Below, one piece after another: positions 1 through 55,230 of a stretch of DNA of 64,000 nt. A program made the position numbers and the translations under genes. Numbering within the stretch: position 1 is the stretch's first letter; each line of letters begins with the position of its first letter. This DNA is from Microthyrium microscopicum (Eukaryota). The stretch spans positions 1,375,530 to 1,439,529 of the forward strand of contig MU004238.1 of NCBI GenBank assembly GCA_010405405.1. Reading direction: 5' to 3'. The notes under the pieces were generated by a model. It was not told the DNA's origin. It ran no database searches and saw nothing but the letters and a program-made list of their open reading frames with translations.

Positions 1-1200
1 ACTTCTTATTAAAAAGAATCTTCTTCTATATATTTCTAAGAAAGTCTCTATAAAACTAAAAGAGGTAACTCTTCTAATTATTATATTTCTATTTCTTCTA
101 TAACTTAAGGAGGTTATTATAAAGCTCCTAAAGGTAGTGTTAATCTAATTTAACTATCTAAGACTTCTTAAAAGTAATATATTCTTACTTTATAGAGTAG
201 CCTAAATAGCCTAGCGTATAGTTTTAGACTACTTACTATATCTTTTAAAATCCTAAGTCTTAGGACTCTTTATAAAAGATAAGATTATTTAATTCTATCT
301 ATAATAGCTCTTTCTTAAGCTAATTACGTTTATAAATATACTAATAGAGTTACTAGTTATAAGTACTTTCTTAATAAAAGGGTTTAATAAACTTTTATTT
401 AACGTTATTAACCTAAGATATATATTCCTAGAGACTCTTCTTCTTATAAAGCTCTATCTTAGGCCTATCTTAATTTAAAAGTTCTAAGAGAGTAAAAGCT
501 TAGCTTAAAAGATACTAATTAAGTCTTATTATATTAACTTAGCTAAAGTTCTCTAACTTTTAGGTAGTTTTAAGTTTACTAAACTAAATTACCCTAGCTT
601 TTACTATTAGCTCTTATATCTTAAGCTCTAGCTTCTTTTTATTAATAAGTACGTTAAGTTCCTTCTTATAATACGTTATAAAGTTATTTTAGGTCTCCTT
701 AGGCCTAGGTAAATTAAGGTTAGCTAGTTTAATATTAGATAGGTCTAATAAATCTCTAAATATATTAGTTTAAGGTATAATAGGTACTAATAACCCTTAG
801 CCTAATAGTTAAGGCTACTTAAGTCTTATCTAGGTACTAAGGTCTAAATATCTACTATTAGATATAGTTTCTAATTAAATAAAAGATAAAAATAATTTCT
901 TTAGGTACTTAAAGGTTAAGAAGTAATTACTATATTAGAAATAAGTTATTCTAAGTAAGTAAAGACTATAATTATTATAGTTTAAGTAGATACGTAAAAA
1001 TAAGAATAAGAGTAATTACTAGGGAGTTACTTAGATCCTTATAATTCCTCTTCTTTATTACCTAAAGCTATAAGGACTCTACTAAGCTATCTATATTTAT
1101 AATAAGTCGTTATTAGTTAACCTAACTAATAACGCTTTATCCTACGTAGACGTGTCCTATTAGTAGCTGTCTTAAACTAGAGGTATCCTAGTTCCTAACA
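1..1200 (-). mobile_element. RIP-degenerate LTR retrotransposon fragment (putative LTR ~973-1200 plus gag-like start) nested in Tc1-like copy 1
   Basis: Very AT/TpA-rich. The minus strand begins TGTTAGGAAC at 1200 (TG start typical of LTRs), exactly where homology to 40537-43418 stops. A minus frame near 600-700 reads as RIP-mutated coiled-coil coding sequence. Confidence 0.55.
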
Positions 1201-2670
1201 TTAATATTACTTAACCTTTTCTAGTTAAAGTAATCTAAAATATTCTTAATGCTACTTAGGATGTTATTTATAAGCGTTAATATAGCCTAAACTACGTCTA
1301 AGAGACGTATTTACTTAGAACTAGTATCTAAAACGCTATAATAAATAGTGCTTAGTATTTTAAGATATTTTTACTTAATTTTAGCACCCTAGTTTCCTAG
1401 ATTAACTTTACGCTATTAACTCTACTAGTACCTAAATTCCTTCTTAAAATTACTATCGTTATAAAGATTTAAAAGTAAGGAATACCTATTATTAAGAATA
1501 AATTTAATTATATTTGCTAGAGTCTAGTTTAAACCTTTAAAAAAACTTAGGAATAGCTTAATTTACGTCTTAAAGAGCAAGGAATAATATATAGTTCTAT
1601 TATCTTAATATAGATATTTTTAAAGCAATAAATAAAGAAGGGGACTAAAGATCTTTAATATAGCTTTAGTATTAATTTAGGCTTAAGCAATAAGGAGCTT
1701 AATAGTATTCTTACTCTAATTTAGCGCTAAATTGCTTACTAGTACTAGTCTAATTTCCATTAGAATACTTAACACATTAGTAATCTTAAATAGGAGATTT
1801 TGTTTAATATTACTAAGCTAGAACGTCCTCCTTTAGCGTTAGTAATAACAGCTAAGATACTTAAATAGGTAGATCTACGTTACGAAGAATACTAACGGCA
1901 TATAAATTCCACCTTAGAATTTATTATATTATTAAGTAAATAGCTATATTAGGATAAACGCTATCTAAATTACCTTAATAGTAGTTACTACTAAGTCAAT
2001 TCTCGTAATAAGTATATCTTTTTAATAGCTATAATATTAAACAAGTAGGCCTAAAAGATAACTTCTAATAAGGCTAGAATTAAAGTACTACTTAAAATTA
2101 TAATATTAAACCTTTTAGAAGCTACGGCTATCTAAAGAGCTTAATATCAAACTACAACTATAATAATAATAATAATATTAAATTCTACTTTATAACTTGT
2201 TTATATTAATATTTACTACGATTAAGAGAGCTTAAACTTACCTAGTAGGACCTCTAGTAGGGTCTAGAGTAGCTAGAGCTAGTATACACGTTTTAGCTCT
2301 TTACTACGTTATAGTGGATTAGCTATAGCTTTAGGTTTAATCCTTAAGTTGCCATTAGTCTAAAAATATAATCTAGAGGAAGAATTTAATATATTTAATA
2401 GCTAGTACAATATTAATTTAGGTTTCTAATAACGTTTAGTATTTTTAGCTATTATTAAGACTCTTTAGGATAAAGGATATTATTTAGGCTATATAATAGG
2501 TAAAGATTACACTTAGTTTAAGTACCTTTTAGAGAGGGCTATAATTTAAAATTTTAATAATATAATTAAACTTTGTAAGGAATTTGTTACTAATTTCTAT
2601 TAGTATTATATATATTAGATTTCTTTTCTTAACGATACTAGTTCTAAGTTAAGCAAGTAAGATTTATAGT
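1201..2670 (+). pseudogene. RIP-inactivated second (cargo) ORF of Tc1-like copy 1
   Basis: Homologous to 40560-41996. The frame read at ~1860-2190 has only TAA/TAG stops and de-RIPs to approximately K-R-C-P-N...Y-C-W-V-D-S-R-G-K-H-I-F-L...W-A...I-E-V-P-P. Confidence 0.65.
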
Positions 2671-2741
2671 AGTAGTAGTTTAATATTAAATTGTTTTATA
2701 GTATATAATAGTTAAAGATTAGAAGTAATAATAAAGCTATT

Positions 2742-3839
2742 TAATAGAAATTCCTATATAACCCTAGGCCCTAATAGGTCTAAATAATATAACTACTATG
2801 TTGAATATGTCCTATAGCTTAATTTCTATCTATTATTCCTTTACTTAAAACCTTTATTCTTATACTTAAAAACTACTTAAATAATATAAATTTTTTATAA
2901 GAATACTACTAGGCGTTATTACCCTTAAGCTAGGCTTTTAAATTACTAAAGAACTCCTTAATAGGGTTAAAATCTAGATAGTAAGGTAGTAAGAATTTTA
3001 ATTATACCTCTATAGTCCTAAATATCTTACGAACCTTTTTGCTATAATAGAAAGACATATTATCTATAACAATAATACTTTAAGGAAGAGGATAAGGCTA
3101 ATAGATATTTAGAAGCTTATTTTTATACTACTAAGCAAAACTATTACTATTACTATTAGCTTCGTAGATATTTACTAATAGAATACTATTTACGCTATAT
3201 ACTAGTAGAATATTATACTATTTAGTAATATTATTAATATTCTTTAATTTTTACTTATCTAACGCTAAGAAGCTCTTAATATTTAGTTCTATACCTACTT
3301 TACTCTATTTCGTTATTCTTAAGACGCTAGTAATACTATACTTTACTTTATTAATAAAGATAAGCTATTTAGTAGTATATTTTAATATCTATAGGTAGTA
3401 TTTATAATAAGCTTTAGCAAAGTGCTAGGTAGTAATAATCTTTAATTACGAGATATAAGAATGCATCCCTTAGTGTTAGTTTATTACTAACCTTCTTTTT
3501 AATATAATTGTATCTATTTAGAACTTATAAAATAATAGGCTGACTTATAACAAGCCTAAATACATTCTAAATAAACCCTAATATCTTGAATTGTATTGAA
3601 TTAGGTTAGTAAAGTAGGTATTTAAATAACGTAACTCGTATATTATAATTTATTATTAGTAAAGGTCTTAGATATAGCTTTATAGGATCAAACGAGCCCT
3701 TAATCTTTAGTATTTAACGCTAGTATTTAATAGTATTCTTACTACATCTAATAGCCTTAGTGATAGCGTTCTTAGTGTAGCTAAGTTTAATTAGGTCCTG
3801 TACCTATTTTTAGTAGCGAGGTTCGAGATGGCGCAGCAT
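2742..3839 (-). pseudogene. RIP-inactivated DD34E (DDE_3, Tc1/IS630) transposase, copy 1
   Basis: ATG at 3839 followed by an HTH-like N-terminus. De-RIPed motifs are LIFI(D)(E) at ~3350, (M)DNxSF(H)(H)S at ~3050 and FL(P)PYx(P)DFNPI(E)EFF at ~2950-3000. The 3' end is approximate. Confidence 0.85.
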
Positions 3840-4289
3840 GTTAAAGATTGGTTCGTTATAGTGTTAAAATACTAAAAATTAAGAAATTTAATAAAAATTT
3901 GGCTTTAGGACTAATAATATTGCAATTTAGGAAGATAATGGAGTTAGTAAGATTAATCTAAGGGGCTACGCTGCTAAATTTATATACTAACGCACTTTTT
4001 AGATCTTCGTGCCCTCTAATCAGGTCCTGAAGCGCCATTTTACAGTTTCAGGGGGGGGACTAGAGAACCTAAATGGCACTGTAGCGGCATTTCCGTTCGT
4101 TTGTGCAGAGTCGGGGTCTTGCAGAGCCATGGTGCCGTGGTGCTGGTTCTGGAAGCCGAATCAACGTTCAGCAAGACTGTCGTTTGGAGACTTGACAAAT
4201 AAGGTTAGCTGTGCGGCATCTGCTTCACAGACTGAAGACATGATCCCTAGCCTGTACAGTTATTGCTCCACGCCTATAATCGACTACTA

Positions 4290-4754
4290 CCTGTGTTGAT
4301 TCAAAAGTCTGTTCGGTCCGAGCATTTATCACCAAAATTAGCAATCTTTGCCTTGTCGTTCTATAATCTATAGTGCTTTTAAAAATCTAAGCTACTCTTT
4401 AATAATTACTATAAAGATTCTCTATCCTATGAATATAGATATATAATATAAGAGCTACTAGAGGCTATAGAATTTGGATTATAAATAAGAGACTTATGGT
4501 TAAGCACTTAATTTAGCGGGCGCCCCTACTAAATCGTTCTAGAATAATGCCTTCTTAGCTTTACGCCTTAATAACTCTCTATAGAGATAGTTTTAAGCAA
4601 TTCTAAAAAGAGCATTATAAGGGGTAGTATATAAACTCACTTTGTATCTACTTTAAAAGATATTCGTTTAAAATTGAATGCGTAGGAAATTATTTTGAAC
4701 CATCAGTTTTGGTGATAAACGCTCGGACCGAACAGACTTTTGAATCAACACAGG
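4290..4754. mobile_element. MITE / non-autonomous TIR element (465 bp)
   Basis: Near-perfect ~50-bp TIR CCTGTGTTGATTCAAAAGTCTGTTCGGTCCGAGC(A/G)TTTATCACCAAAA. TA on both flanks (4288-89, 4755-56) and a RIP-like AT-rich interior. Confidence 0.9.
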
Positions 4755-7367
4755 TACTGCAGCGTGTAAATGTTGTCCTGGCCGTGTATTACTCGCCAGA
4801 CATGACCCTATCATATCAGTCTTTGGCTTACTTCAAGGATCCACGACTTGCTCACAGGTGCATGTCCGACGTCTTGATCCTCATGTACCACTGAATCCGA
4901 GCCCCCGCGCTATCTGGTTCCGGGCACCAACCTTTTCGTAACGTCAGCCGGCTTTGGACGACCATCAGTTGCCTGGACCTGACAACCCTGACTACCAAGG
5001 CATGAGGTGGAGTGGGTGACTCCTCAGTTTTAACCTCCTTGTTAAAACTTAAAGGCATGTCTTGGACAAGTTAGTGTCAGCCCAGCCATCCAGATGATCA
5101 TATATACCGAGGCGCTATCTATATCTCTATGTATCTCTCACGGCTCACCCGGAGGGCCGTCATCTGCCGGGGGCTCCCGCTCCAAGCCATTTCATGATTT
5201 GATGCCACTCTTTTTTACGATGCATTTCCACATGTCCATCAATGGAGCCTTGGTGGTGTTCGTACACACCCATCATGGCCGCCCCTGTTTCGTCAAAGTG
5301 CGCATTCCAAGCGACGATAATAGGCGGGCGTTATGCTTTGCCTTGCAGTTGTCTCCACTCTGGCCAGTCGCTTTGTGTTGAGCCTGCGTGACGGTATCGG
5401 TAGCGAGCGAGGCAACCTCGCCGTGTCTAGCGACGTCCTTGTTGCATCATGGAGCCTATAACCCACATTGTGCGAAAAGGGATATCTTAAGTGGTTCGCT
5501 CCTAGTTTCTACCTACCTGTTACCACTAAGGTAGATGACAGGGGTACAAGCTTCCTGCATCCAGCCTTTCCATAGCTTTGCTAGGTTCCGCGACGTTTCC
5601 ATCTGCGTGGCGGCGCTGCCAGGATGATGCCCAGTACTGCAGTCGATCAGCCTCTTACTGCCTCTTGTAGAACAAAGGCTCAAAGCATTCTTTCCGTCAG
5701 GGTGGCAAGCCCGGTCGACCTTGATACATTGAGCCACCCTACATAGACATCTTCAACGATCCTCCCTGACCTCCCGTCATCAAGATCGGAAGAACAATAA
5801 CAACAATCATAATCATCAAATAGTAACCTAAATTATACGAGAGTAAACCTTAGGCGTTGACCACTAGGAAACGCTTCTCTGCTGGGCTTGTGAACCGAAC
5901 CACGATCCATGGGAGTGTTGGATGTTTAGAAACATGGCGGCCAGGCTTCTCTTGCTGAGACTTGCCGCAATAGTAGCATACAGCATCACGGCCCTGGACG
6001 TTTCTCGCGGCCGGCATAAGAAAGCCTGCAGTCTTGCAAAGTGCTGGTGACCACTGACCAAGCATCCACGCCAAAATTACTGTGCAACTAATGAAGCCAG
6101 GCAAGGCTCGCAACCGGTGGATAACCCCATCAGCTACGATGTCTCCCAAAGCACTTGATCAAAAGCGAAGCATGGTACAGGTAGATGTCCTAGTGGATGG
6201 GATAATGGGATTGGAGTGTGCCATTGGCTTTATCAATCAATTAGAACTTGAACGAGATATCATAAAAAGTATATTTGTGAGGTTTATTGCTTGCTCGACG
6301 GAACAGCGTGCTGTTACAGGCCTTCTTGAAGATTTGAAGCAAGCGCTAAGAGGTTTTGAGTGCTTTACCTACCATGGTACCTCCCTAGGTGCCCATGCAA
6401 TGCAGCTTGATGCTTGGCATACTCTTTTTTTGCGAAGCAAGTCACCAGCTGGCAGCCGTAAAGTTAGACTACACACACATTTTTCCCGTGCTTGTCCTAG
6501 ACTCCCCCAGCGCCTTCCATGTCCATTGTCCATTTTGATCTCGCCCATCGCATCCTTTCGCACGACCTGAGAATTCAAAGACCAAGGATTGGCAGGCTCA
6601 AGGCTCAAGCTGCGGCAGCGCGACGTTCCCCATGATGGTCCAAACTATCCCGTTCCTCTTAGGCTATTATTACTGTATCCCTCAATATCCATCACATTCA
6701 CCCCAACTTGCGCCTCATACATGCCCTGCCACGCGCATACGCCCATGCTACTCGCCTCCACTGTTCTAGGACAGACCTGATGCTCCTTGTGAGTCCCTGA
6801 TGATGCTCCCACACGCCTATCGTCCGTTTCCCTGCCTTGCACGCCTCTCCCTGGCTCGTCCTTTGACCATTCTGTTGCCCTTTTCATTGGCTCCATCCAA
6901 CCGGTCTTGAGCGACTCGCCAGTTTCTGGATGAGCGCAAATCGCTGGAACATGCTGTTCCCCCAACTTCCCGAAAGTGCCACATATAATTGTTTTTACCC
7001 AATTACGGAGGTTGCTCTAACCGTTTGACCACCGACCACGCATGTAGGAGCCCTCCACATCCTGCTGGCCCTGCCGTTCAATCTCCAGTCAGTTTAGGAT
7101 GAACTTTCTTACCGGCCCTTGCTGGCGTCTAGTAGTACCCCCAGAGAAGGTGTCTTGGTGGACATGAGCATCACATCCATAAGGCGTTTCATTAGTCTTT
7201 AGTAGGTAACCATCCGGATTGTCTTCAGCCGCAGTGTTAAGTCTGATATATATCTCACTCATCCATCCCCTTGCTACAATTATGTTTAAGTACCGCCATG
7301 GCCGCCCGCCCCTTCTCCATCTAGAGCCGTGATATCATCAAACACCCAACCGTACCTTCCGCCCACA

Positions 7368-25670: not shown

Positions 25671-26435
25671 GATGACCGATTTAACTCAAGGCGAGCAGCA
25701 ATAGTTGAATGAGTGACTACAGTGAGATGTAATTCGAGATGTACTTGGGCTGTCACTCGGATTATAGTGTATTACGAGAAGCTCAATCAGATTGATGTTG
25801 AAACCACATGACGAAAATGAATGATTGAAGAAACAGAAAATAGTACAGATCCCAGAAGAAAGATCGTACAAATTATTAGAATCACCGAGAAATAGATGAA
25901 TATGCCACGGGAACTAATCAATGTCCTAAATTGCGTGCAGGGCGCATCGCACAAACACGCCGCGGAACTTGTACCCAGTAATAACTCCATAGGGTTATTG
26001 AAGCATTAGCTGTGAGTGGAAAGATTTAGACAGAAGTCTGGTTTCTAGATGTGCTTATGCACAAGGTTCCGTATCATTTATGAGATTATGGTAATCTAAG
26101 GATCCATCAATAGCACGATGTGTCTTGTAGTTCGAATCTAGAAGTCTTCGGCATTGTAGATTAGGGGTTTTGATAGCAATTGGTATTTGACATTATTTTC
26201 TTCTAGAACAAATTATTTTAGGTTTGTTGTGCTCCTTCTATTGCTTGGACCATAACCCGGCCCTTTATGCATTTGAGGTCAACGTCGCATCATGTAGAGC
26301 AGGGGCATCTACTGCCCTGACTGGGTAATAGAATAGATGACAGGTACCTGAAAGAGTAATTGTTGGCGAACAGATTTATTTAAATCTGTATGTGTAGAAA
26401 AGTAGCATCAGTGACCTGATTTGAACGAGTACATA

Positions 26436-27068
26436 CTATAGCGTGCGACGGGGGGTAGAGTAAATAATGTCTACGATTATGTCTCTACTATTTTATAGAA
26501 GGGTTCTCTCCACTGTATCCCCTAAGGAATTCATGCCAAATTTAGATATCATATTTAAGAGTTAACACCATTTTTGCAAAAAAACATGTCTAGATAATAT
26601 CAAGACTTTAGAAAAGATCTAAAAAAATTGCCTAATTAGGTAATTTTTTTGACTAAAGCTATTAAGTCTAGGTAGCTAGAAATACTTCACAATATAATCT
26701 TTTGTTAATTACGGTAATTTATTTTACGAATTAGGTTAGGCTCGTATTTTACTTATGAGCAAGATCTAGCAGTTAAAGTTCTACTAGTTTTACGAATACT
26801 AATTATGCAAATAAGCACTTTTAGGATATATAGACTACCTAAAGCTTCCTCTGCTTATTCTTACCTAAAATAACTTTTACTCCTTCCTTATCTCCTATTG
26901 TGATCCTTCCTAGCTACTAAGACACCTTCTAGCTAGACATCATTAAGAAATAATCTTAATCCGAGACATTATAGCCTCCTAAGCCACTATTTTGAACTTC
27001 ATGTTACCAAAATGTCTATCTTGAAACTACTCAACATCATTTGCTCTACCCCTCCTCCCACGCTATAG
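26436..27068. mobile_element. MITE (633 bp), RIP-mutated
   Basis: ~35-bp imperfect TIR CTATAGCGTG..GA.G.GGGGTAGAG(T/C)AAAT(A/G)ATGT. TA on both flanks and an AT-rich interior. Confidence 0.8.
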
Positions 27069-27251
27069 TAGCTATAGCGGGATGCATAAAGTCTTCTGGT
27101 CACTGAAGACTTTGAACGTATCGGACTATTGCGGCGTGATTATGTTTCGGTGGAAACCTTTGGAAAGGTTCATTGTTTTGTTTATAATGGGATATCTAGT
27201 AATGATACTACAGAAACTCATTCGCATCAATCTAACTTCAGGTCATTATCA

Positions 27252-35923: not shown

Positions 35924-37534
35924 CTAGGATTTGACTAGCAAGCTGGTGCTATCCATAGCATCTGGTTGAGGTAGGCCCATTGCGTCTAGTATAGTTGGAG
36001 CAACATCACCAAGAACACCACCTGAGGTTTTCAAGCTCCAACCCTTGGGAGCATTGAGCATGACAAACGGCACTTTGTTGGTTGTGTGACTTGTCTTTGG
36101 TTTTCCCTCGTCGTTGAGCATCTCCTCGGCATTTCTGAACCTAGTTAGTCTTTGATGTTCACTGTGGTTCGTTGTCACTCACCCGTGATCGGCTGTAATA
36201 AACAGCATATATCCATTCTTGTAACATGTCTCATAAATTTTTCCGATAGCCAAGTCGGTCTCGGCACATGCCTCAATAGCAGCTTCGTAGACACCAGTGT
36301 GCCCAACCATATCCGGAGGCGCAAAGTTGTTCATCAAAAACTCGAACTTGCCCTCTTGGATTCGCTCGCACAGCTTGTCAGCGACAGCCATGGCGCTCAT
36401 CTTTGGCTGAAGATCATAGGTTGCTACTTTTGGGCTTTGAACGAGCTCGCGCTCTTCGCCCTCAAATTGCTTTTCTACACCACCGTTGAAGAAGAAAGTA
36501 ACGTGGGCATATTTCTCGGTCTCAGCAACGTGGAGCTGCTTTACGCCTTGTTTTCCGAGCCACTCAGCAAGTACATCGTCCATGACTTGCGGTGGAAAGG
36601 CGATTGGAAAGGTATATTGTGTGTTGTAGCGAGTCATAGTGGTGATGGAAATATCCTTGGGGTATGGGAAGTCTGGCAGGCCGGAACGGTCAAAGTCTCC
36701 AAGAAGCTGGGTGACTTCCCGAACACGATCGGAGCGGTAGTTGAAGAAGAAGAGAGTGTCGCTGTCTTGGACTCGTCGATCTTTTCCGCCAATGATAATG
36801 GGCTTCAAGAACTCGTCATTCTCCTTCTTCTCGTAGCGCTCCTTGATGGTCTTGACTGGATCATCCGAGTCCTCACCCTCACCAAGAACGATACCTTTTA
36901 GACCCACTTCGACACGCTCCCAGCGCTTGTCACGGTCCATAATATAGTAGCGACCGACGATGGTCGCCATCTCGCCAGTACCAACCTCCTTGATGTGCTT
37001 GAGGAGATCTTCGAGGTAGCCGGCGGCGGACTTGGGGTCGGTATCTCGACCATCGCCGAAAAAGTGGATGAACACATGCGGTACACCCATTTGCTTTGCG
37101 ACTTTGAGCAACGCAACCAAGTGAAGGATATGTGAGTGCACGCCACCATCTGATACAAGACCCAGCAAGTGTAATCGACCATTACCATCGATGGCATGCT
37201 GAAAAGACTTCTTGATATTCACAGTATCCTTGAATGTATCCTTCTTGATAGTGCTATCAATTCGAACCACATCTTGCCAGACTACACGACCAGCGCCAAT
37301 GTTCAAATGTCCGACCTCACTATTGCCCATCAAGCCCTCGGGAAGACCGACTGCTTCGGAAGAGGCTTCGATCTCAGTATATCCTTGGGCGGCTGTTGAT
37401 TCCTTGGACTTGTAGTCGTCCATGTAGGGAGTATTGGCGGCGGCAATGGCATCACCATCTTTGGGAGAAGATTCGCTGGCAATGCCCCAGCCGTCAATGA
37501 CGATAAGGACGGCCTTTTGGTCGACTTTGACCAT
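35924..37534 (-). CDS. gpmI: 2,3-bisphosphoglycerate-independent phosphoglycerate mutase
   Basis: IDGWG, MGNSEVGH, SDGGVHSH, DGRDT, ETEKYAHVTFFFNGG, DMVGHTG and TADHG|NAE motifs; one intron. Confidence 0.95.
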
Positions 37535-40500
37535 GATTGCGAGGTGATGCGTCTGAGGTCGTGTTTGGGAGAAAAGGAGGGCAATTGACGCAAGAAGAGG
37601 TTGTTTGGGCTATGTTTTTAGTTCAAGGCAATTTGCGGGATTTCTGTCTTTTGAAGGCTACGACGGCCGTGGACTTTTAGGCTAGTGACGTCGGCGGGGA
37701 TCGGACGGATTGATTGCTTTTTCTCTATACGGTGCTTGGGTTATTCTGATGATGTAGACGAATTGGAGTTGAGAGATATCGCTCCACTGCTGAGTTCTAC
37801 AAGTGGAGATGAAAAGGAAAATCAGCAGAGCTCGAAGCCATGTATGGAGGAGCTGGAGATACCTCTTGTCAGAGAGCTGTCGATTCCCCCACCATGCACT
37901 TTTCACGATAAGAAGACCCCTGTCCACACAAATTCTCACAAGGCTGCCAAGACAAGGCTGAAGCCTATCGTCCCTTCACTTCAACTCGATTGGAAAATTA
38001 GTTTCCTGATACAATTGCTGCGTTCATAACGAACGGACAATTAGTACCAAATGGAGAGGGGTAAGTTATACTCAAATCGAATGTCTCATTTTGCTTTACA
38101 TCTTTCATTCGCCATAACTGCGCTAACAGTGCCGACATTTCATCAAATAAGGTAGGCTAGAGATACAACCCCTAATTTGAATTGAGTTGGTAGGTATCGT
38201 AGTCGATGTAGATGTGGGTCGTCACTTCGTCGAGTCACTGGTCATGGTTTCAAAAAGTCCTCTTTAGGGGAGGCTGAGGCACGGGCAAGATCTCGTCTAC
38301 AAGGTATCGGATGTACATTTTCATTGGCGGATATGTATGCGGCTCTACATGTGTGATGTAGGAGACTACGTATCGACTAAGTACACTGGTAGGCTATCAC
38401 CACATCGTTCAGCACTTTCCCAGCCGACCAGCAGATTGTGTTCTATATCTTAGGCCCACAAGTCAACTCAAAGCCATCTTCGAAACAGTACGGCTAAAGG
38501 CATATTCATATGGTAAGGAACTTCGACAAAAAATTTCTCCTCATATTACTCATTGGAACAACCACCCATTTTTCTGGTCTGGACCGCCATCAGGCTGAAA
38601 TTGGCTATCACCGGTGCACTAATCCGGCCTGGTCTGAGATGGGTACGTCTGACCAGTTAAAGAAACCATGGAGTGGTCAGGAACTAAATGAGAATTTAGC
38701 TTCGCAACTAGTTTCCTTCAACATCGCCTGTTGTTTGTATACTTCAGTTCACAATATGACTCTGAGGGAATCTACAGGTCAGGATGGACTGATAAATTAA
38801 TTTAAGGTACAATACTGCTTTTCTTCAAAGCTACCTATCTAGAAGTGTTTACAGTTGCATATCATACATTCCATTATGGGCTTGGGAGCAGATTCGGTAG
38901 ATCATCCAATTCGTTTATATCCATGTAAGGCTCGAGCCACTATGGCTTCTTGAGCACTGAGTCCGCCAGTCTAGATCGCATAGAGCAAGTCTTTAGATAC
39001 TTTACAAGGATATGGCAGAAATATATTATGCTCCATCACTCAACCCAACCATTGATGGCCAAGTCAGCTTGATTTCCAAGATCTAGAATCTTATTGCTGC
39101 TCGACGCGGGTAGGATCTGACTGCAATCCTACCTAATATCATGGAAAATGCCCTTGCATCTTCGAGCGGCAATTAGATAATTCCCCTGATCAAGCAGGTA
39201 CTAATTATATGCCTATACGTAGTGATATATGTCTGTTGGAAAACGGGCTTTTCGTGCAGTTCGTCAAAACACATTCTCTCTACTAACTCACAACGAAGAC
39301 ATCTCTCAAATCACTTCATCCATTACATAGATAAGCTGCCCGATATACTTAACCACAATGTCAGCAAACCAATGCAACAGACCAAACCTAGGAACACCTC
39401 AGATGTACCTCTCTCCCAACCATACAGTGCTATTGGAGTTGTCTTCCCCTACCCCCTGAAATTATAAAATGGCGCTTTAGGCCGTAATTGGGTGGATCCG
39501 CGGGTGGAACTAGGCGTTATAGTGCAAATTTGTAGGGCGCCTCCCAATCGTAGCCTATTAGTAGTCCCTAAAAACTATTCTTCCTATATACTATATTTTA
39601 GGTCGCTTTTAAAGCCGTGTTAGTAACGTAGATAGCAGAATAATAGTATTTAATTACTACTTATTTATTACTTTATAATATCTTAAAATAGTAGTATTCC
39701 TACTAGTTAATGACGTTTAAAGCTCTTTAATAGTAATTATATCTTGACGGAGCTAATTAAGCTGTAATCTTAAGTTAGGTTCCTAAAGATATTAAAGCTA
39801 AAGTAGGTAGAAAGGTAGTATTCCTACTAGTAGAGTTAAAGATCTAGAGTTAAAGATGTTAAACGGCATAGGATTATTAGCGCTAAGGGCTGTTTTATTA
39901 GTAATTAGATTTAATAGTAGTAAAGAAGCTAAAGATCTAGTACTAGCAACGTTAATAGGGTGCTATTTTAAAGTTAATAAAGAAGTAAGAGCGACGACTA
40001 TAAGATATCCTATTAATCTAATCTAAAATTATTAAAATATACTTATTTAACGTTATTTTATCTTTAACGATTCCTTAATATCTTCTATATAATTTTCTAC
40101 TACTCTTTTAATACTAAAATACTTCTTAATACTATAGTTTATACTCATTAGGTTCTTAGTCCTATCTAATTCCTAAACTACTATATCTTAACGCGCGCTA
40201 TAAATAAATACTACGCGTTAGTACCTAAAAAGGCTATTAAATAGTTATTTAAGATTTTAGCGAACGTAGGTAGAAATCCTTTATTAAAAACGCTTACGCT
40301 AGCCCTAAAGGCTCTAACTATATCTTCTTATCTTAAATACTCTATTTCTATATTTTATACTAAACCTATACTATTACTTATTCTTTATAATAAAGTTAAT
40401 ATAAATATTATTATTCCTAATTATTTATTAATACTACTAGCTTCTTAGGTTTAACTAAATAAGTATTCTTTATAATAAGATAGTAAGACTTAAGATATCT

Positions 40501-40559
40501 TAAAGTACGCTATAGATAAATTATATTTTTAAAATATTAATATTACTTAACCCTCTTTA

Positions 40560-41996
40560 ATTAAAGCAATCTAAAATATCCTTAATACTACTTAAGATAT
40601 TATTCGTAAGTATTAATATAGCTTAAACTACGTTAAAGAGACGTATTTACTTAGAACTAATACCTAAAACGCTATAATAGATAGCGCTTAGTATTCTAAG
40701 ATTTTTTTACTTAATTTTAGCGCCCTAGTTCCCTAGATTAACTCTACGCTAATAGCTCTACTAGTACTTAAATTCTCTTCTAAAATTACTATTATTACTA
40801 AGATCTAAAAGCGAGAAATAGCTACTATTAAGAATAAATTTAAATATCTTTATTAGAGTCTAGTTAAAGGCTTTAAAAAGACTTAGGAATAGCTTAATCT
40901 ACGCCTTAAAGAGTAAGGAATAATATATAGTTCTACTATCTTAATATAGACGTTTTTAAAGTAATAAATAAAGAGAGAAACTAAAGATTTTTAATATAGC
41001 TTTAGTATTAATATAGACTTAAGTAATAGAAAGCTTAGTAGTATTCTTACTCTAATTTAGTACTAAATTACTTACTAGTATAAGTCTAATTTCCGTAAGA
41101 ACTCTTAACGCGTTAGTAATCTAGAATAGGAAATTATATTTAGTATTACTAAGCCTAAACGACCTTTTCTACTATCCGTAATAGTAGCTAAGATACTAGA
41201 ATAGGTTAAACTATACTATAAAGAATAATAGTAGCGTGTAAATTCTACTTTATAATTTATACTATTAATAGATAAATATTTATATTAAAAGGAAAAATAT
41301 CTAAATAATCTTAATAAAGGATATTACTTTATAGATTCTCGTAATAAGTATATCTTCCTTATATTTAACAATTTAAATAATTAGGCTTAAGTAATAGCAA
41401 AGGGTAAATATACTATTAAATTACTACCTAATATTATAATATTAAACTTATTAAAAGGTACTACTGTTTAATAAGCTTACTATTAATATTAAATAATAAT
41501 AGTATTAAATTCTACTTCGTAACCTATTTATATTAATATTTACCATAATTAAGAAAGCTTAAACTTACTTAATAGGGCCTCTAGTAGGGTGTAGAGTAGT
41601 TAGAACTAGTATACGTGCTTAAGCTCTCTACTATATCGTAGCGAATTAGATATAGCTTTAAGTTTAATCCCTAAGCTACTATTAGTCTAAAAATACTATC
41701 TAGAGAACGAATTTAATACATTTAATAGCTAGTACAACATTAATTTAGGTTTCTAATAGCATTTAGTGTTTTTAGCTATTATTAAGGCTCTTTAAAATAA
41801 AGGATATTATTTAGGCTATATAGTAAATTAAGATTATACTTAATTTAAGAGCTTTTTAATAGGGGTTACGATTTAGGATTTTAACGACATAATTAAACTT
41901 TATAAGAAATTTATTACTAATTTTTATTAGTACTATATATATTAGATTTCTCTTCTTAATAATACTAGTTTTAAGTTAAATAAATAAGATTTATAG
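40560..41996 (+). pseudogene. RIP-inactivated cargo ORF (~480 aa, start unresolved) with Cys/His motif
   Basis: One continuous frame read by eye from ~40730 to ~41996 contains only TAA/TAG stops, all revertible to CAA/CAG/TGG/CGA. Conserved in copy 1 with an in-frame 9-nt indel. Confidence 0.65.
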
Positions 41997-42069
41997 TAGT
42001 AGTAGTTTAATATTAAATTCTTATTATAATATAAAGAAGTTAGGATTAGAAGTAATAATTAAAGCTATT

Positions 42070-43176
42070 TCCTAGATATTCCTATATAACCCTATGCTCT
42101 AAGGGATTTTAGTATTCTTTATAATATAACTACTATATTAAATATGCCCTTTAGCTTACTTCCTACTAGGTACTCCTTTACCTAAAACTTTAATTTTAAT
42201 ACTTAAAAACTACTTAAAAGACATAGAATTCTTATAGCTATACTACTAGCGGTTGTTCGTCTTTAATTAGGCCTTTAAATTACTAAAAAACTCTTTAATT
42301 AGATTAAAATCTAAGTAGTAAGGCGGTAGGAATTCTAATTATATCCTTATAGTTCTAAATATTTTATAAACCTCTTTACTATAATAAAAGGACGCGTTAT
42401 TTATAATAATAATACTATAAAGAAGAGGATAAGGCTAATAGATATCTAGAAGCTTATTTTTATATTACTAAGTAAATCTATTATTGTCATTATTAGCTTT
42501 ATAGATATCTACTAATAGAATACTATTAATACTATATATTAGTAGGATATTATACTATTTAGTAATATTACTAATATTCTTTAATTTTTACTTATCTAAT
42601 ATTAAGAAGCTTTTAATATTAGGTTTAATACCTACTTTACTCTACCTTATTATTCTTAAGATGTTAGTAATTCTATACCCTACTTTATTAATAAAGATAA
42701 GCTATTAAGAAATATATTTCAATATATAGAGATAGTATTTATAATAAGCTTTAGTAGAGCGCTAAGTAGTAATAACCTTTAATTATAAGATATAAGAATG
42801 CGTCCCCTAGTAATAGTTTATTACTAACCTTCTTTTTAGTATATTTATACCTATTTAGGACTTGTAAGATTACTATCTAACTAGTAATAAGCCTAAATAT
42901 ATCCTAAATAAACTTATATATTTTAAACTAAGTTAAATTAGGTTAGTAAAGTAGGTATTTAAATAACGCGACCCGTATATTAAAATTAATAATTAGTAGA
43001 GGTCTTAGCTACACCTTTATAGGTTTAAACGATCCTCTAATTCTTAGTATTTAACGCTAATATTTAATAGTATCTTTATAATATTTAATAGCTTTAACAA
43101 CGGATAACGTTAAGTAGCTAAGCTTAATTATATCCTTTACTTATTTTTGGCAATAAGCGTCAAGATATATTAGTAT
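42070..43176 (-). pseudogene. RIP-inactivated DD34E transposase, copy 2
   Basis: (D)NASF(H)(H)S at ~42380-42405 and LEFLPPY..DFN.I.EFF..LKA at ~42270-42340, with 34 residues between the D and E. The 3' end is approximate. Confidence 0.85.
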
Positions 43177-44103
43177 ATTAAAGAGTCATTTGGTACAGTA
43201 TTAAAATACTAAAAATTAAAATATTTAATAAAGATTTAGCTTTAGAATTAATAATAATGTAATTTAGGAAGAGGATAGAGTTAGTAAGTTTAATCTAAGG
43301 GGCTACGCTGCTAAATTTGTATACTAACGCACTCTTTAAATCCTTCCGCCCTCCAATTAGGCCCTAAAGCGCCATTTTATAATTTCAGGGCTGGGGGAAG
43401 ACAACTCCAATAGCACTGTAGCACCCTCTAACCCTCCACTAACATTCCACCAGCTACGAATCCTTCCCCGTCTGTTCCTACCGCTCCCAATACGACCAAC
43501 ACCAAGCAGCCTCCAAATGCTGCTCCTTTTCCATCCAAGGCTTCCAATGCTAGGCCTTCTGCAAAGTCGAACAATCAAATTTTGACACCTGGACCAGCTG
43601 TATGAAAGCGGAAAACGCCACCTGGGGACTGAGTTGTCAAGCGGCCGACCAGTCACCACTCTTGACTCATACGGGTCCGTTGCCAGCTTCTTATACACAG
43701 CCTCATTCGCCGGAGCCATATACACGCCTACAGGCGCTGGAGACACCAGTGGTGAAGGAGGTGTTGAGGAGGGATGTGGCTGCCACGACTACGTCAATTG
43801 GGCCTCCAATACCGACTGGACCGCATACGAATCAGACGCATTCGCATTCAGTGTCTTCAGCTTCAGCGGCTGCGACGACGGATGCGAAGAAGGGTGGTTC
43901 AGTGAAGGGGTTTGCCTCGATGGGTGGTGTTATGTGTGCTTTGTTGGTCGTTGCTGGTTTTGCTCTATAGAAGTCACTGAAGTTATAGGAGGCATGAAGT
44001 AATGTAAATGTATAAATGCAATTGTATCATTAAATCTGGGGTATTGTGCATATGTTAATATAATGGCAAGTCGTCATAAGTGTCATAAGATCATTTAGTC
44101 TTT

Positions 44104-46642
44104 TCATCTCAACTCCTTCTCTGCAGCGAAACTGATCGGCTCGCTTTCATGGATCATGATTGTTGGGGTGGTGGTGTTTGAATTGGTTTGCGTCAGGTCG
44201 CGGATTACTTCTTTGGCTTTTCGGAGATCTTTACGGTAGCCTTTGACGTCGAGCTTGTAGAGTACGATATCGTGCAAGTAGTACTCGATCTCACTCTCTA
44301 GCTCATCGATACGACCTCTTGATTCGTTGGCATCAATTGAATCGGTTGGAGATCGTGGCTCGGTGTCATTGCCCTTGAGGTAGCCGGCAGCCCGTTGACG
44401 TACGATGTTGATGGCATCCTCGAGGTTGGGGTTCTTCTGGAGGAATGGGAGGGATGGATGTTTGCGCGCATGATCGTCAATGGTGGTGCGGCGGATCTCG
44501 GCGTGTAAGAGGTTGGCGTATTGGTCGCGCTCGATGCGTACTGTGCGGAGTGCTTCCTGCATCTCCACCACTTTGCGGCCGGGCGAGGACGGTGGTGATG
44601 TGCGGGCCTTGAGGATGCTGACTTCAGCTTGGAGGCGCGCGTTTTGGGCTTCAAGGATAGATGCGGTTTGAGCCGACCCTTGGTTGGTGGCCATAAGAGT
44701 GCTGATTACTTGGGTCTTTTCATTGAGGCGTTGCTGGGCATCCTCAAGCTGGAAGGTCATCTCAGCGAGTGCAGTAGGGAGGTCGGAGTTGGGTGAACGA
44801 GTCTTGAGTTCTGCCTCCAGGATTTCGTTGCGGTGCTGCAGCTCCTTGAACTTGGCTAGCAAGTCATCACCAGCAGGAGACTGAGGAGGAGTATTCTTGA
44901 TAGCGTGTAATTCATCCATAGCTTGCTTCAGTTGTTTCTTGGTCGAGCAGACTTCTTGACGAACTTGGAGATTGCCTTCGAGCACGTCGACCTTTTGCGC
45001 GTTGACATCCTGTAATTTTGCTTCTAGACGCTCCGAGTTCTTCTTCTCTGCTTCCAATTGCTCCTTGACCGTAGAGTTTTTCTTCAGCTCTCCCTCGTAC
45101 TTTGCTTCCATGATGGCCAGATCGTTCTTCGCCGCATGGAAATCATTCTGTATAGCTTGCTCACTGACCTTGGCTTCTCGTAGCCGGCCTAGTATCTTTT
45201 GGATGTTCTCATCTGCTTCCTTGTTCGCACGGATTAATGCCGCTTTTTCATGCTCAAACTCGTTAAGGCGTGCAGACATGAACTCCAGGCGCTGTTTGAC
45301 CTGATCGTTTTCCATAAGGCTCGCGTGCGCCTGTTTCCTCTCGTCGCCGTACGCCTGCTGCGAATCACGCATCCTTGCGTCCTGTCCACTGTTGTCCGCA
45401 GCAAATGTTGCTGCTCTCATTGGTGTTTGCGGCATAGATTGGGTGCCGGAGGGTCCAACAGCGGGAAAGTACGAGTCGGTTGGTCTTGAGGAACTACGGA
45501 CATGCCCAGATGGGTTGTTTGGTGCGTTTGCATATTGTGGCTGGCGAGTTGGTGTGGCAAGTCCACGCTCGGGACTGGCGTTGGTGTTCTTCCGACTCCA
45601 GCCGCCTTGAAGTTCTTGGAGCTCGGTGATGGTTGCAGTCAGTGTGCCTTCAACTTCATCTAGTATCGATGCAGGTGGGAACAGCGACGATGTTGTTGTA
45701 TTCTGTGAGTTGCTTCTGGATCGTTGCCTTTGCACGCGAGAGCTGGCATTGCTAGGATCTCTAGTTGGTATTGTGGATTGAGATCCTCTCCTGGCATGGA
45801 TGGTTGAGTTTATGGAAGGCATCAATGTATATGAACCCTTGCTTGAACTCCTTTCAGGTCTTGATGAGCTGCCGCGTGGAGAACTGTTGTCTGTTGTGTT
45901 TGGTCGCGAAATTGGAGAAGTGACGCGTCGAGACCCCAGGTCATTGCCATTTTGATTTCTTTTCGAGTCAATGTCCACGGCCAAAGGCAGTGGTTTGTCC
46001 TCCCATGACATGACATATTTGGGTGCGCTGCCAATGGGAGTAGTCTTGGAGCGTCTTCTTGTGATATGGGGATCCGCTGTTTTGGGTCTTAGTGGTTCGA
46101 TGGATGGCGCGACGAAATGGTCAGAGGCAGCCGAAGGTCTTCGGCTGTGTAAACGACTTGGAGCTGGAGAAGGTGATGATCTCGGAGAGCGTTCTTCAAG
46201 AGCAGGAAAGTTTGAGAATATGGTATTGTCGTGCAAAGGTGGCGTTGTTGGGTTTTCGGTAGGAGTCGCATCACGAGATGAGGATCTGAGAAATGAATGG
46301 CGACCAATGTTAAGCTTCGGTGTCTGAAAAGAGATCATAGTTAGTATATTGATTCATTGTATGAAAAGTTCGAGCACGAATATCATAAGTTGTGTTTGAT
46401 AGTGACAAGGTCATGGGTCCCAATTCACTGCAGAGTTGAGGAGGCACAGGGTAGTATTCGCGTATGGATCAACTTGCCTTTTTGATAGGACTAGGCCCTG
46501 TGGTTGGTACCTTGCTGAGGCGAGTATGCTTTTCTGGGGATTTCTCGCGGGCTTTCAACTCTTCAATAGAAACTAGACCACCAATTCCACTACCAATGTT
46601 TGGCTTGCGCTCGCCGCGCCAGGAACTAAACTTGCCCATCAT
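44104..46642 (-). CDS. Large coiled-coil protein with Ser/Arg/Pro-rich N-terminus, function unknown
   Basis: 744-aa ORF with C-terminal YYLHDIVLYKLDVKGYRKDLR. The first exon joins in frame via a GC-AG intron at 46324-46477. Confidence 0.8.
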
Positions 46643-54624: not shown

Positions 54625-54721
54625 TGTAATATATTCCCATACAGTGGAAGGTGACCTGAAAGGAGAAGGGAGAGTTTAGGACAAACTCAGGTACCTGAGC
54701 CTGAGAAGGATTTAACACGTA

Positions 54722-54943
54722 CCATAGCGTGGAGGGGGGAGTTATAGAAATCATCATATGAGGATTTTATATACAAATTTACTAATTCACCCCCTTTGCC
54801 GATTAAAGCTATGCAGACATTATTGTTACGATGATGAAAGCATAACTGAATAGAATAAAAACGATCATAACATGCTGAAGTAATTCGTTCTTGCCCGAGA
54901 TTCCCCTATGATCATTTGTATAACTCCCCCTCGCGCTCTATGG
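54722..54943. mobile_element. Short MITE (222 bp), TIR related to 26436-27068
   Basis: Left end CCATAGCGTGGAGGGGGGAGTTATAGAAATCAT; right end reverse complement CCATAGAGCGCGAGGGGGAGTTATACAAATGAT. TA on both flanks. Confidence 0.7.
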
Positions 54944-55230
54944 TATGCTAGGAGCACAAAAGACTGTCTCACATGTGCTACGATCTTATAGGAGATATAC
55001 ACCTGATTACAGTCTATGACATCTATAACCATAGTGACCACCAAGCAGAAAAATCAACAAGTGCCGATAAAGCTATATCAATTTCAACAACGAAACAGCG
55101 AGGCGGCAGCACCAACGCCCACCACAATCTATGAATCTACAACCCTGTATAGATAAACGCGAACCCATCTGAACATGTAACCTCGCGCAAATGCAACTAT
55201 CCCAAAGTCGTATCATATCATCCAATGTCA

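Follow-up and report, generated by a model that had tools for sequence, protein, structure and literature searches.

A Tc1/IS630 transposon family of Microthyrium microscopicum inactivated by repeat-induced point mutation, with a partial coding signal suggesting a second gene

Introduction

Tc1/mariner elements are the textbook minimal transposons, consisting of two ends and one gene. The superfamily is described as 1.3–2.4 kb long with a single open reading frame (ORF), and its Sclerotinia elements as 1.8–2.3 kb (part of PMC4188875). Plant members are given as reaching 2–6 kb (part of PMC7325037), and Molly and Pixie of Parastagonospora nodorum are reported as Tc1/mariner elements hit by repeat-induced point mutation (RIP) (part of PMC3017866). 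Here we describe an element of this superfamily in 64,000 nucleotides of Microthyrium microscopicum DNA (assembly GCA_010405405.1, contig MU004238.1, positions 1,375,530 to 1,439,529), a stretch that we call the window and in which all coordinates are given. The element at 39425–43418 is referred to as copy B, and a second copy, at 1197–4085, as copy A. Like Molly, Pixie, and the Sclerotinia elements, this family has a TA target, CAGTG termini, terminal inverted repeats (TIRs) some tens of bases long, and a DDE_3 transposase in which 34 residues separate the second D from the E, and it shows deletion derivatives resembling miniature inverted-repeat transposable elements (MITEs) and degradation by RIP. 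Unlike them, copy B is about twice as long and carries 2.6 kb of family-wide extra sequence with a coding-like signature.

The DNA transposons PIF/Harbinger, En/Spm, and Mutator encode or depend on a second protein of their own. The likeness to them, a transposase together with a selected second element gene, serves as a working model only; they have other transposases and target duplications, and Pfam finds no Myb/SANT domain in the extra region of copy B. Within some Mariner/Tc1 elements the second gene is Fanzor1, a TnpB-like RNA-guided nuclease (parts of PMC3627910 and PMC10530073), whose signature is D-x(125-275)-[TS][TS]-x2-C4 zinc finger-x(5-50)-RD, and the table of Fanzor1-bearing fungi in PMC3627910 has chytrids, Mucorales, and similar groups but no filamentous ascomycetes. 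The present element resembles these in having a Tc1-type transposase and a putative second gene within TA-flanked TIRs, and differs in that searches of copies A and B, with RIP allowed for, detected no D...[TS][TS]xxC4...RD motif and no Zn-ribbon domain. A literature search, of sources available in part and with the Repbase and Dfam catalogues outside it, turned up no description of a two-gene Tc1-type element in filamentous ascomycetes. We propose, with moderate confidence, that copies A and B belong to a RIP-inactivated, once autonomous Tc1/IS630 (DDE_3, DD34E-type) family of ascomycete transposons, and that a partial coding signal in the extra sequence points to a second gene.

Results

The initial annotation had described TIRs and a TA duplication that bound 3,994 bp, and both are present. 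The within-window comparison pairs 39423–39491 with 43420–43353 at 92.8% over 69 nt including the TA (E = 5e-22), giving TIRs of about 67 nt and an element of 3,994 bp between the TA dinucleotides (Table 1). A degenerate 25-nt TIR core occurs three times in the window, compared with 0.00 expected from 100 shuffles. Pattern scans for the element ends in metagenome contigs and in viral contigs gave 0 matches.

All six frames of each copy, with stops read as X, were compared with Pfam. DDE_3 (PF13358) was found in one minus-strand frame of each copy, at 31.0 bits (E = 2.7e-7) in copy B and 30.7 bits in copy A, above the curated cut-off of 28.6, and the other five frames of both copies gave no Pfam match at E ≤ 1. 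The catalytic residues, which were located by motif rather than from a printed profile alignment, have the spacing D-95-D-34-E in both copies. Copy A retains the second D, which copy B has as N, and in both copies N stands for the first D and K for the E, each of these two changes amounting to one RIP-type transition. These matches and the 34-residue spacing confirm the minus-strand DD34E transposase of about 1.1 kb that had been claimed. Its start codon is ATG in copy A (3837–3839) and ATA in copy B, and the N-terminal part has no helix-turn-helix match in Pfam. This part is read in frame −0 (43176 to about 42760) and the DDE part in frame −2 (about 42700 to 42100), and because the same shift is seen in both copies (42700–43176 in copy B, 3360–3839 in copy A), we infer a short intron near 42700–42760. 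Copy B thus fits the Tc1/IS630 superfamily, Tc1-like DD34E, in its TA duplication, TIRs, DDE_3 domain, and catalytic spacing. It departs only in length and content, with about 2.6 kb outside the transposase gene, and the canonical 1.3–2.4 kb single-gene build is a habit of the family rather than a condition of membership.

Copy B is an inactivated, RIP-saturated transposon fossil. Its TpA/ApT ratio is 1.66, compared with 0.56–0.71 in the flanks, its (CpA+TpG)/(ApC+GpT) ratio is 0.20, compared with 1.26–1.38, and its G+C content (GC) is 0.25; the usual thresholds for these indices are 0.89 and 1.03. The outer 135 nt or so escape RIP, with a GC of 0.49 and normal indices at 39425–39560. This damage determines what can be used as evidence of coding. 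A C>T or G>A change in a sense codon can yield each of the stops TAA, TAG, and TGA; those made by RIP are thus reversible in any frame, and an ORF restored by RIP reversal is not evidence. Similarly, TAT and TAC codons may stem from Cys, His, or Tyr. Since RIP reversal opens any frame, only signals that RIP can neither make nor erase were used in the coding tests below.

The extra 2.6 kb belongs, as far as this can be tested, to a multicopy family and is not a private nested insert. Contigs from three runs, X1–X3, were examined; they are of one sample, which is probably the source of the assembly, so they are not independent evidence. At ≥80% likeness, 439–578 contig pieces per run matched copy B, and all 30 bins along it were covered. 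Summed contig depths are not copy numbers and serve only to compare how repeated the two halves are. In run X1, the summed depth was about 120–170 in the flanks, about 1,300–1,650 over 40578–41145 in the extra part, and about 1,090–1,360 over 42140–42849 in the transposase part, with dips to about 230–340 over 41146–41429 and about 355–500 over 42850–43133. By contig depth, the whole 4 kb is repeated about ten-fold in the source sample. The loose ends of other copies start just outside both TA dinucleotides, which fixes the limits of the mobile unit. A 348-nt contig in the same sample joins 39484–39632 to 43200–43336 with 48 other letters between them and is a MITE-like internal deletion derivative of the family; among the joints listed, none removes the extra part alone.

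A nested independent transposon was considered as the source of the extra DNA and rejected, as it has no terminal repeats or target duplication of its own inside the element. The search for an inner TIR or long terminal repeat (LTR) gave nothing beyond AT-rich matches of about 70–80% over ≤45 nt, and a scan in purine/pyrimidine (RY) code for a 150-nt inner terminus gave 94–98 of 150 positions, compared with a shuffle mean of 97.8. A nested element with its own ends had been named as a check on the candidate gene, and none was found. Because depth is equal in both halves, the flanks diverge outside the TA, and there are no inner ends, we consider the extra DNA to be part of the family. Hence, the description of the second gene as a selected, integral part of the element stands for the DNA, which is family-wide and shows signs of purifying selection at 41133–41488, and not for the gene, whose frame and strand these data do not fix.

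Comparison of the two copies in the window supplies the coding evidence. Copy A aligns to 40533–43422 of copy B at 81.4%, and it breaks at 1196/1197, so that the left 1.1 kb of copy B is without a partner in the window. The 2,900 aligned columns hold 379 transitions, whose predominance is in keeping with RIP, 152 transversions, which bear out those reported between the copies, and indels of 9, 9, 1, 1, and 1 nt. The only indel within 40533–42020 is one of 9 nt at 41489/41490 of copy B, as had been claimed for the candidate ORF; the second 9-nt indel is in the transposase tail. All three 1-nt indels lie between the candidate coding parts, at 42023, 42041, and 42059. Thus, 1.49 kb with a transversion divergence of about 5% is free of frame-breaking indels, and the adjacent 40 nt have three. 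Among the contigs listed, the best-supported 1-nt indels of the family (39505/39510, 39669, 40257–40263, 40512–40515, and 40557) are left of 40558 or are compensating pairs.

The transversions over 40533–42020 are distributed among the codon positions as [26,13,34] (chi-square p = 0.0099), with the second position the least changed (13 of 73), and those in 41133–41432 as [11,7,23] (p = 0.006). The transitions, tested alongside, have no codon periodicity. The signal is strongest in the hypervariable segment, 41133–41488. After column-wise RIP reversal (deRIP), 13 of the 38 differing codons there are synonymous in frame +0 and 14 in frame −1, which shares its third codon position with +0, compared with 1–4 in the four frames that do not share it. 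Permuting the transversion sites in 2,000 trials, and taking the maximum over six frames, gives P = 0.0045 for this excess. The transversion-only ratio of nonsynonymous to synonymous change (dN/dS), from which RIP sites are excluded, is about 0.35 in +0 in this segment and 0.14 in the transposase DDE part, which served as a control; elsewhere in the extra region the ratio is 0.5–1.1. The control has 10 synonymous codons in its true frame (permutation P = 0.0185). The same tests recovered the transposase frames, including the unexpected N-terminal frame change, which was confirmed by translations. One family contig has a replacement of the same length, diverged in sequence, across 41205–41415. 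These results establish in part that 41133–41488 probably evolved under purifying selection before RIP, on some reading frame.

It is unlikely that there is no second gene and that the extra 2.6 kb is noncoding filler, such as older insertion debris or long subterminal regions that became fixed when the family was founded, with a periodicity due to chance or to recombination between subfamilies. Filler does not readily account for a synonymous excess that is stronger than in the real transposase, for the constraint on second codon positions over 1.49 kb, for the confinement of frame-breaking indels to the adjacent 40 nt, or for the length-preserving replacement across 41205–41415. Recombination would be in keeping with the mosaic divergence of A and B, which ranges from 0.023 to 0.137 transversions per site. 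Variation in the family falls on three places: the outer TIR, where A and B agree at 76%; the N-terminus of the transposase, with 0.083 transversions per site; and the middle of the extra sequence, with 0.137. Filler would also agree with the ratio of 0.5–1.1, which outside the 356-nt hypervariable stretch rests on 8–10 differences in +0, with the absence of a homologue in every search described below, and with several of the compositional results that follow.

A number of observations weigh against a second gene read through the whole region in frame +0. The coding tests rest on two copies, which are not independent of each other. A two-copy deRIP consensus, taking C over T and G over A in each column (GC 0.30), keeps stops in all six frames, so the ORF that the initial annotation had expected deRIP of the two copies to restore does not appear. 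The stop density in +0 is about 10 per 100 codons, no lower than in +1, −1, and −2. The share of pyrimidine–purine–purine (YRR) codons, a class that contains all stop codons, is invariant under RIP. In the training ORFs of the window it is 0.077 in the coding frame and 0.117 in the codon-aligned antisense frame, and in the transposase frame it is 0.074 for copy B and 0.083 for copy A. Over 40560–42010 (483 codons), the YRR share is 0.112 in +0 and 0.104 in −2; the four best frames, at 0.104–0.118, are all above the coding value. The +0 figure is about 2.9 standard deviations above the coding expectation and near the antisense-shadow value. By segment, the left third has 0.074 in −2 and 0.111 in +0, the middle has 0.084 in −1 and 0.101 in +0, and all frames of the right third have ≥0.116. 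The scores of YRR-poor segments are within the shuffle null (best 8.7, null median 7.2). In the left third, the few transversions favor +1 while the composition favors −2, and the right third shows no selection signal, with 8 or 9 differing codons and a ratio of about 1. Furthermore, Pfam, PDB, and Rfam gave no homologue of the extra region, and a two-copy +0 profile (499 positions) had 0 matches among 1,835,955,588 representative proteins at E ≤ 0.001, a search made for frame +0 only. The single 1.4-kb plus-strand ORF of the initial annotation is therefore not upheld, as its YRR share is that of an antisense shadow and its left third is better fitted by −2.

Frame +0 is the only one among the candidates for both the left segment (−2, +0, or +1) and the middle segment (+0 or −1). 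It is our working choice because it is the sole frame that fits all segments without an intron. The synonymous bias does not tell +0 from −1, so the convergent arrangement that had been claimed is kept as far as the fit of +0 goes, and the plus strand is a tentative choice of parsimony, not a result. Other measures did not separate the strands. A hexamer model in RY code puts +0 or its partner frames at the top in most windows, does not tell the strands apart, and ranked the wrong strand first in one control window. A strand test based on pyrimidines at the second codon position had no power even on the transposase, and the mean BLOSUM scores of replacements did not favor the true frame in the transposase control.

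A second gene on the minus strand, downstream of the transposase, is possible, although we consider it rather improbable. It could stand in tandem with the transposase gene and be split by one or two short introns (frames −2/−1/−2), or the region could hold spliced C-terminal exons of the transposase itself. The six-frame YRR profile of the left segment is almost that of the transposase, with the low value in −2 rather than in +0. Scored with the RY hexamer model, 40560–41159 of B favors −2 over +0 by about 11 bits, and its counterpart in A does so by about 18 bits; the margin for the correct strand in the controls was 3.7 and 12.5 bits. For the middle segment, −1 and +0 fit equally well (14 and 13 synonymous codons), and the 90-nt spacer with its 1-nt indels has the size of a fungal intron. 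The arrangement would also be that of the Fanzor1-carrying Mariner/Tc1 elements (parts of PMC3627910 and PMC10530073). However, a minus-strand gene needs at least two frame changes, and comparison of A with B shows no indel-tolerant, intron-like stretch in 40533–42020. The middle-segment transversions would give fewer changes at the first than at the second codon position in −1, which is atypical. A simple read-through fusion is contradicted by the relative frame of the transposase and the candidate gene, which is not the same in A and B.

The Fanzor form of this minus-strand gene finds no match in these data. The strict Fanzor/TnpB hallmark, [TS][TS]-x2-C-x2-C...C-x2-C with C>Y allowed, gave 0 matches in six frames of copies A and B. 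A looser form gave 7 matches in B and 0 in A, with a shuffle mean of 2.9; as RIP could hide the hallmark, the miss is weak evidence. Neither OrfB_Zn_ribbon nor any other Pfam domain was matched, and no Fanzor/TnpB chain was found in the PDB at E ≤ 10 for the three minus frames or the two-copy profiles. The Fanzor1 guide RNA lies toward the element end. Rfam gave one chance match below threshold (potC, 22.7 bits, with a gathering score of 44), and the cover of fungal Fanzor guide RNAs in Rfam 15 is uncertain. A PDB match of frame −2 to MOB1 (E = 0.89–1.4) was rejected, as it was lost with the two-copy profile, and frames −1 and −0 gave nothing in the PDB.

The initial annotation also proposed a Cys/His motif, Y-C-x-V-D-S-R-G-K-H-I-F-L, and a Zn-binding protein. 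The string is present in frame +0, as GYYFIDSRNKYIFL in copy B and SYY*VNSRNKYIFL in copy A, and both copies have Tyr codons at the positions of the proposed Cys and His. The caveat given with the motif, that its C and H depend on RIP reversal, was well placed. With no C or H at the motif in either copy, the Zn-binding reading rests wholly on free RIP reversal, and there is no support for a zinc-binding site in particular.

The candidate gene had been called conserved, and the result of the +0 profile search gives no ground for carrying this beyond the Microthyrium genome. When RIP was simulated on four genes of the window to 21–25% GC, about 50% identity and about 1 bit per residue were left to the unmutated protein. 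The protein library therefore probably holds no relative above roughly 45–50% identity for +0, a limit that is extrapolated and was not itself simulated; distant relatives or unannotated transposon genes would escape this search. A match of the +0 profile to PCNA in the PDB (E = 0.078) was set aside as chance, with no stretch passing. A word-index protein search with the RIPed transposase as a positive control gave 2,400 candidates, none at E ≤ 0.001, and is thus blind through RIP; the two-copy −2 profile gave 8,000 candidates in the same search, none at E ≤ 0.01, with that control having failed. No self-similarity was found between the extra part and the transposase part.

A piece of a host gene could also have been captured, by transduplication or in the Pack-type manner, and travel without function for the element. 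Ant1 of Aspergillus niger, a confirmed Tc1/mariner member, is about 4.8 kb long and holds part of amyA. We regard such a capture as very unlikely here, because a passenger should not show purifying selection while the family diversifies. In addition, when the extra region was compared by tblastx with the remaining 56 kb or so of the window, nothing appeared at E ≤ 0.01, and a host origin should usually leave relatives among the 1.84 billion proteins, fungal proteomes included, that were searched.

Table 1. Positions in the window of the parts of copy B and of the second copy, with candidate assignments
Feature	Position	Strand	Basis and remarks
Left TA target-site duplication	39423–39424		Sequence; flanks of other copies turn unlike just before 39423 (runs X1–X3)
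Left TIR, begins CAGTG	39425–39491	+	Inverted-repeat match; RIP effect slight
Left internal region	39492–40559		No demonstrable coding; within the window in copy B only; no Pfam match in any frame
Candidate second coding region	40560–42005	+ (tentative)	Frame +0 tentative; phase bias, 9-nt-only indel
Hypervariable segment	41133–41488	+	Frame +0 or −1; synonymous-biased transversions, 0.137 per site
Conserved island in hypervariable segment	41327–41353	+	Reads DSRNKYIFL in +0; alignment of both copies; site of the motif in the initial annotation
Spacer between coding parts	42006–42100		Holds all three 1-nt A/B indels
Transposase DDE part	42101–42700	−	Frame −2; D(N) codon 42689, D 42401, E(K) 42296
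Transposase N-terminal DNA-binding part	42760–43176	−	Frame −0; translations; phase −0/+2 from RY model and transversion dN/dS
Right TIR (...CACTG)	43353–43418	−	Inverted-repeat match
Right TA target-site duplication	43419–43420		Sequence; loose ends of other copies begin behind 43420
Copy A, truncated or interrupted, right 2.9 kb	1197–4085	+	81.4% over 2,911 nt; right TIR 4018–4083; DDE_3 30.7 bits

The AT-rich blocks at 1–4085 and 39425–43418 (GC 23–26%) break a gene-dense window of about 45–55% GC. Pfam matches were found in 12 of its 17 ORFs, for example Las1, DNA polymerase alpha subunit B, iPGM, a HET domain, and a protein kinase, and the ORFs around the element are ordinary filamentous-ascomycete genes. 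Copy B lies between an iPGM-like ORF (36179–37609) and a Wtap-like ORF (44104–46353). The first 1,196 nt of the window are a different RIPed repeat (GC 0.25, CpA index 0.03) with stronger RIP, which abuts copy A, has ...CA as its last letters, and is possibly one terminus of an LTR element that inserted into copy A. Just to the right of copy A, at 4288–4756, there is an un-RIPed, MITE-like element of 469 bp with 50-nt inverted ends that are 98% complementary (TA|CCTGTG...CACAGG|TA). Short inverted-repeat elements at 26434–27070 and 54720–54945, the latter just after the HET-domain ORF, have the similar termini TACTATAGCGTG...GGGG and TACCATAGCGTG...GGGG and are probably one MITE family.

Two further observations concern the ends of copy B. 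The segment 40713–40741 is an inverted look-alike of the 29-nt right subterminal motif at 43290–43318, with 22 of 29 bases alike, or 26 of 29 in RY code. Copy A preserves it, and it may represent a third binding site or a chance likeness. In run X5, which is another sample with the same species label, contigs of 2–3 kb match the termini only (39423–39504 and 43201–43383) and continue into unlike, GC-richer sequence. Such contigs could come from relatives with less mutation or from other elements that have these ends in common.

Discussion

The history of the family reads as follows. A TA-targeting, TIR-bounded DDE_3 element multiplied in the genome, produced a deletion derivative, and was later mutated by RIP. 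The family is about twice the canonical length, and the surplus, about 2.6 kb of its own sequence, separates the left end from the 3′ end of the transposase gene. If the coding signal has been read correctly, the ancestral element had the gene for another protein, with a length of up to about 480 residues. This gene would most simply be in frame +0 on the plus strand and run from the left end toward that of the transposase, leaving about 90 nt as a spacer where the two 3′ ends face each other.

What might be the function of such a protein? It may have assisted transposition as an accessory factor, either in concert with the transposase or at the element ends. We favor this role because the candidate gene seems to have persisted while the A and B subfamily lineages diverged. 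Co-variation of the middle segment, the outer TIR, and the transposase N-terminus would fit co-evolving recognition partners, and this would likewise favor an accessory factor. The role is put forward purely as a hypothesis, which is a further point against the fuller form of our proposal. It is doubtful, but worth considering, that this is a second element-selected gene with no detectable relative in 1.84 billion proteins and thus a new accessory factor, for targeting, for regulation, or for escape from genome defence.

The analysis also bears on how RIPed DNA is read. Reversal of RIP by eye can open any frame, while tests restricted to transversions provide usable evidence. The dead copies at hand are too mutated to name the protein of the candidate gene, and the present value of the finding is that of a lead, a defined family whose ends and core motif can be traced in related genomes. 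If the second gene is real, it would add an accessory function to a superfamily that is taken to be single-gene, together with a new protein to study.

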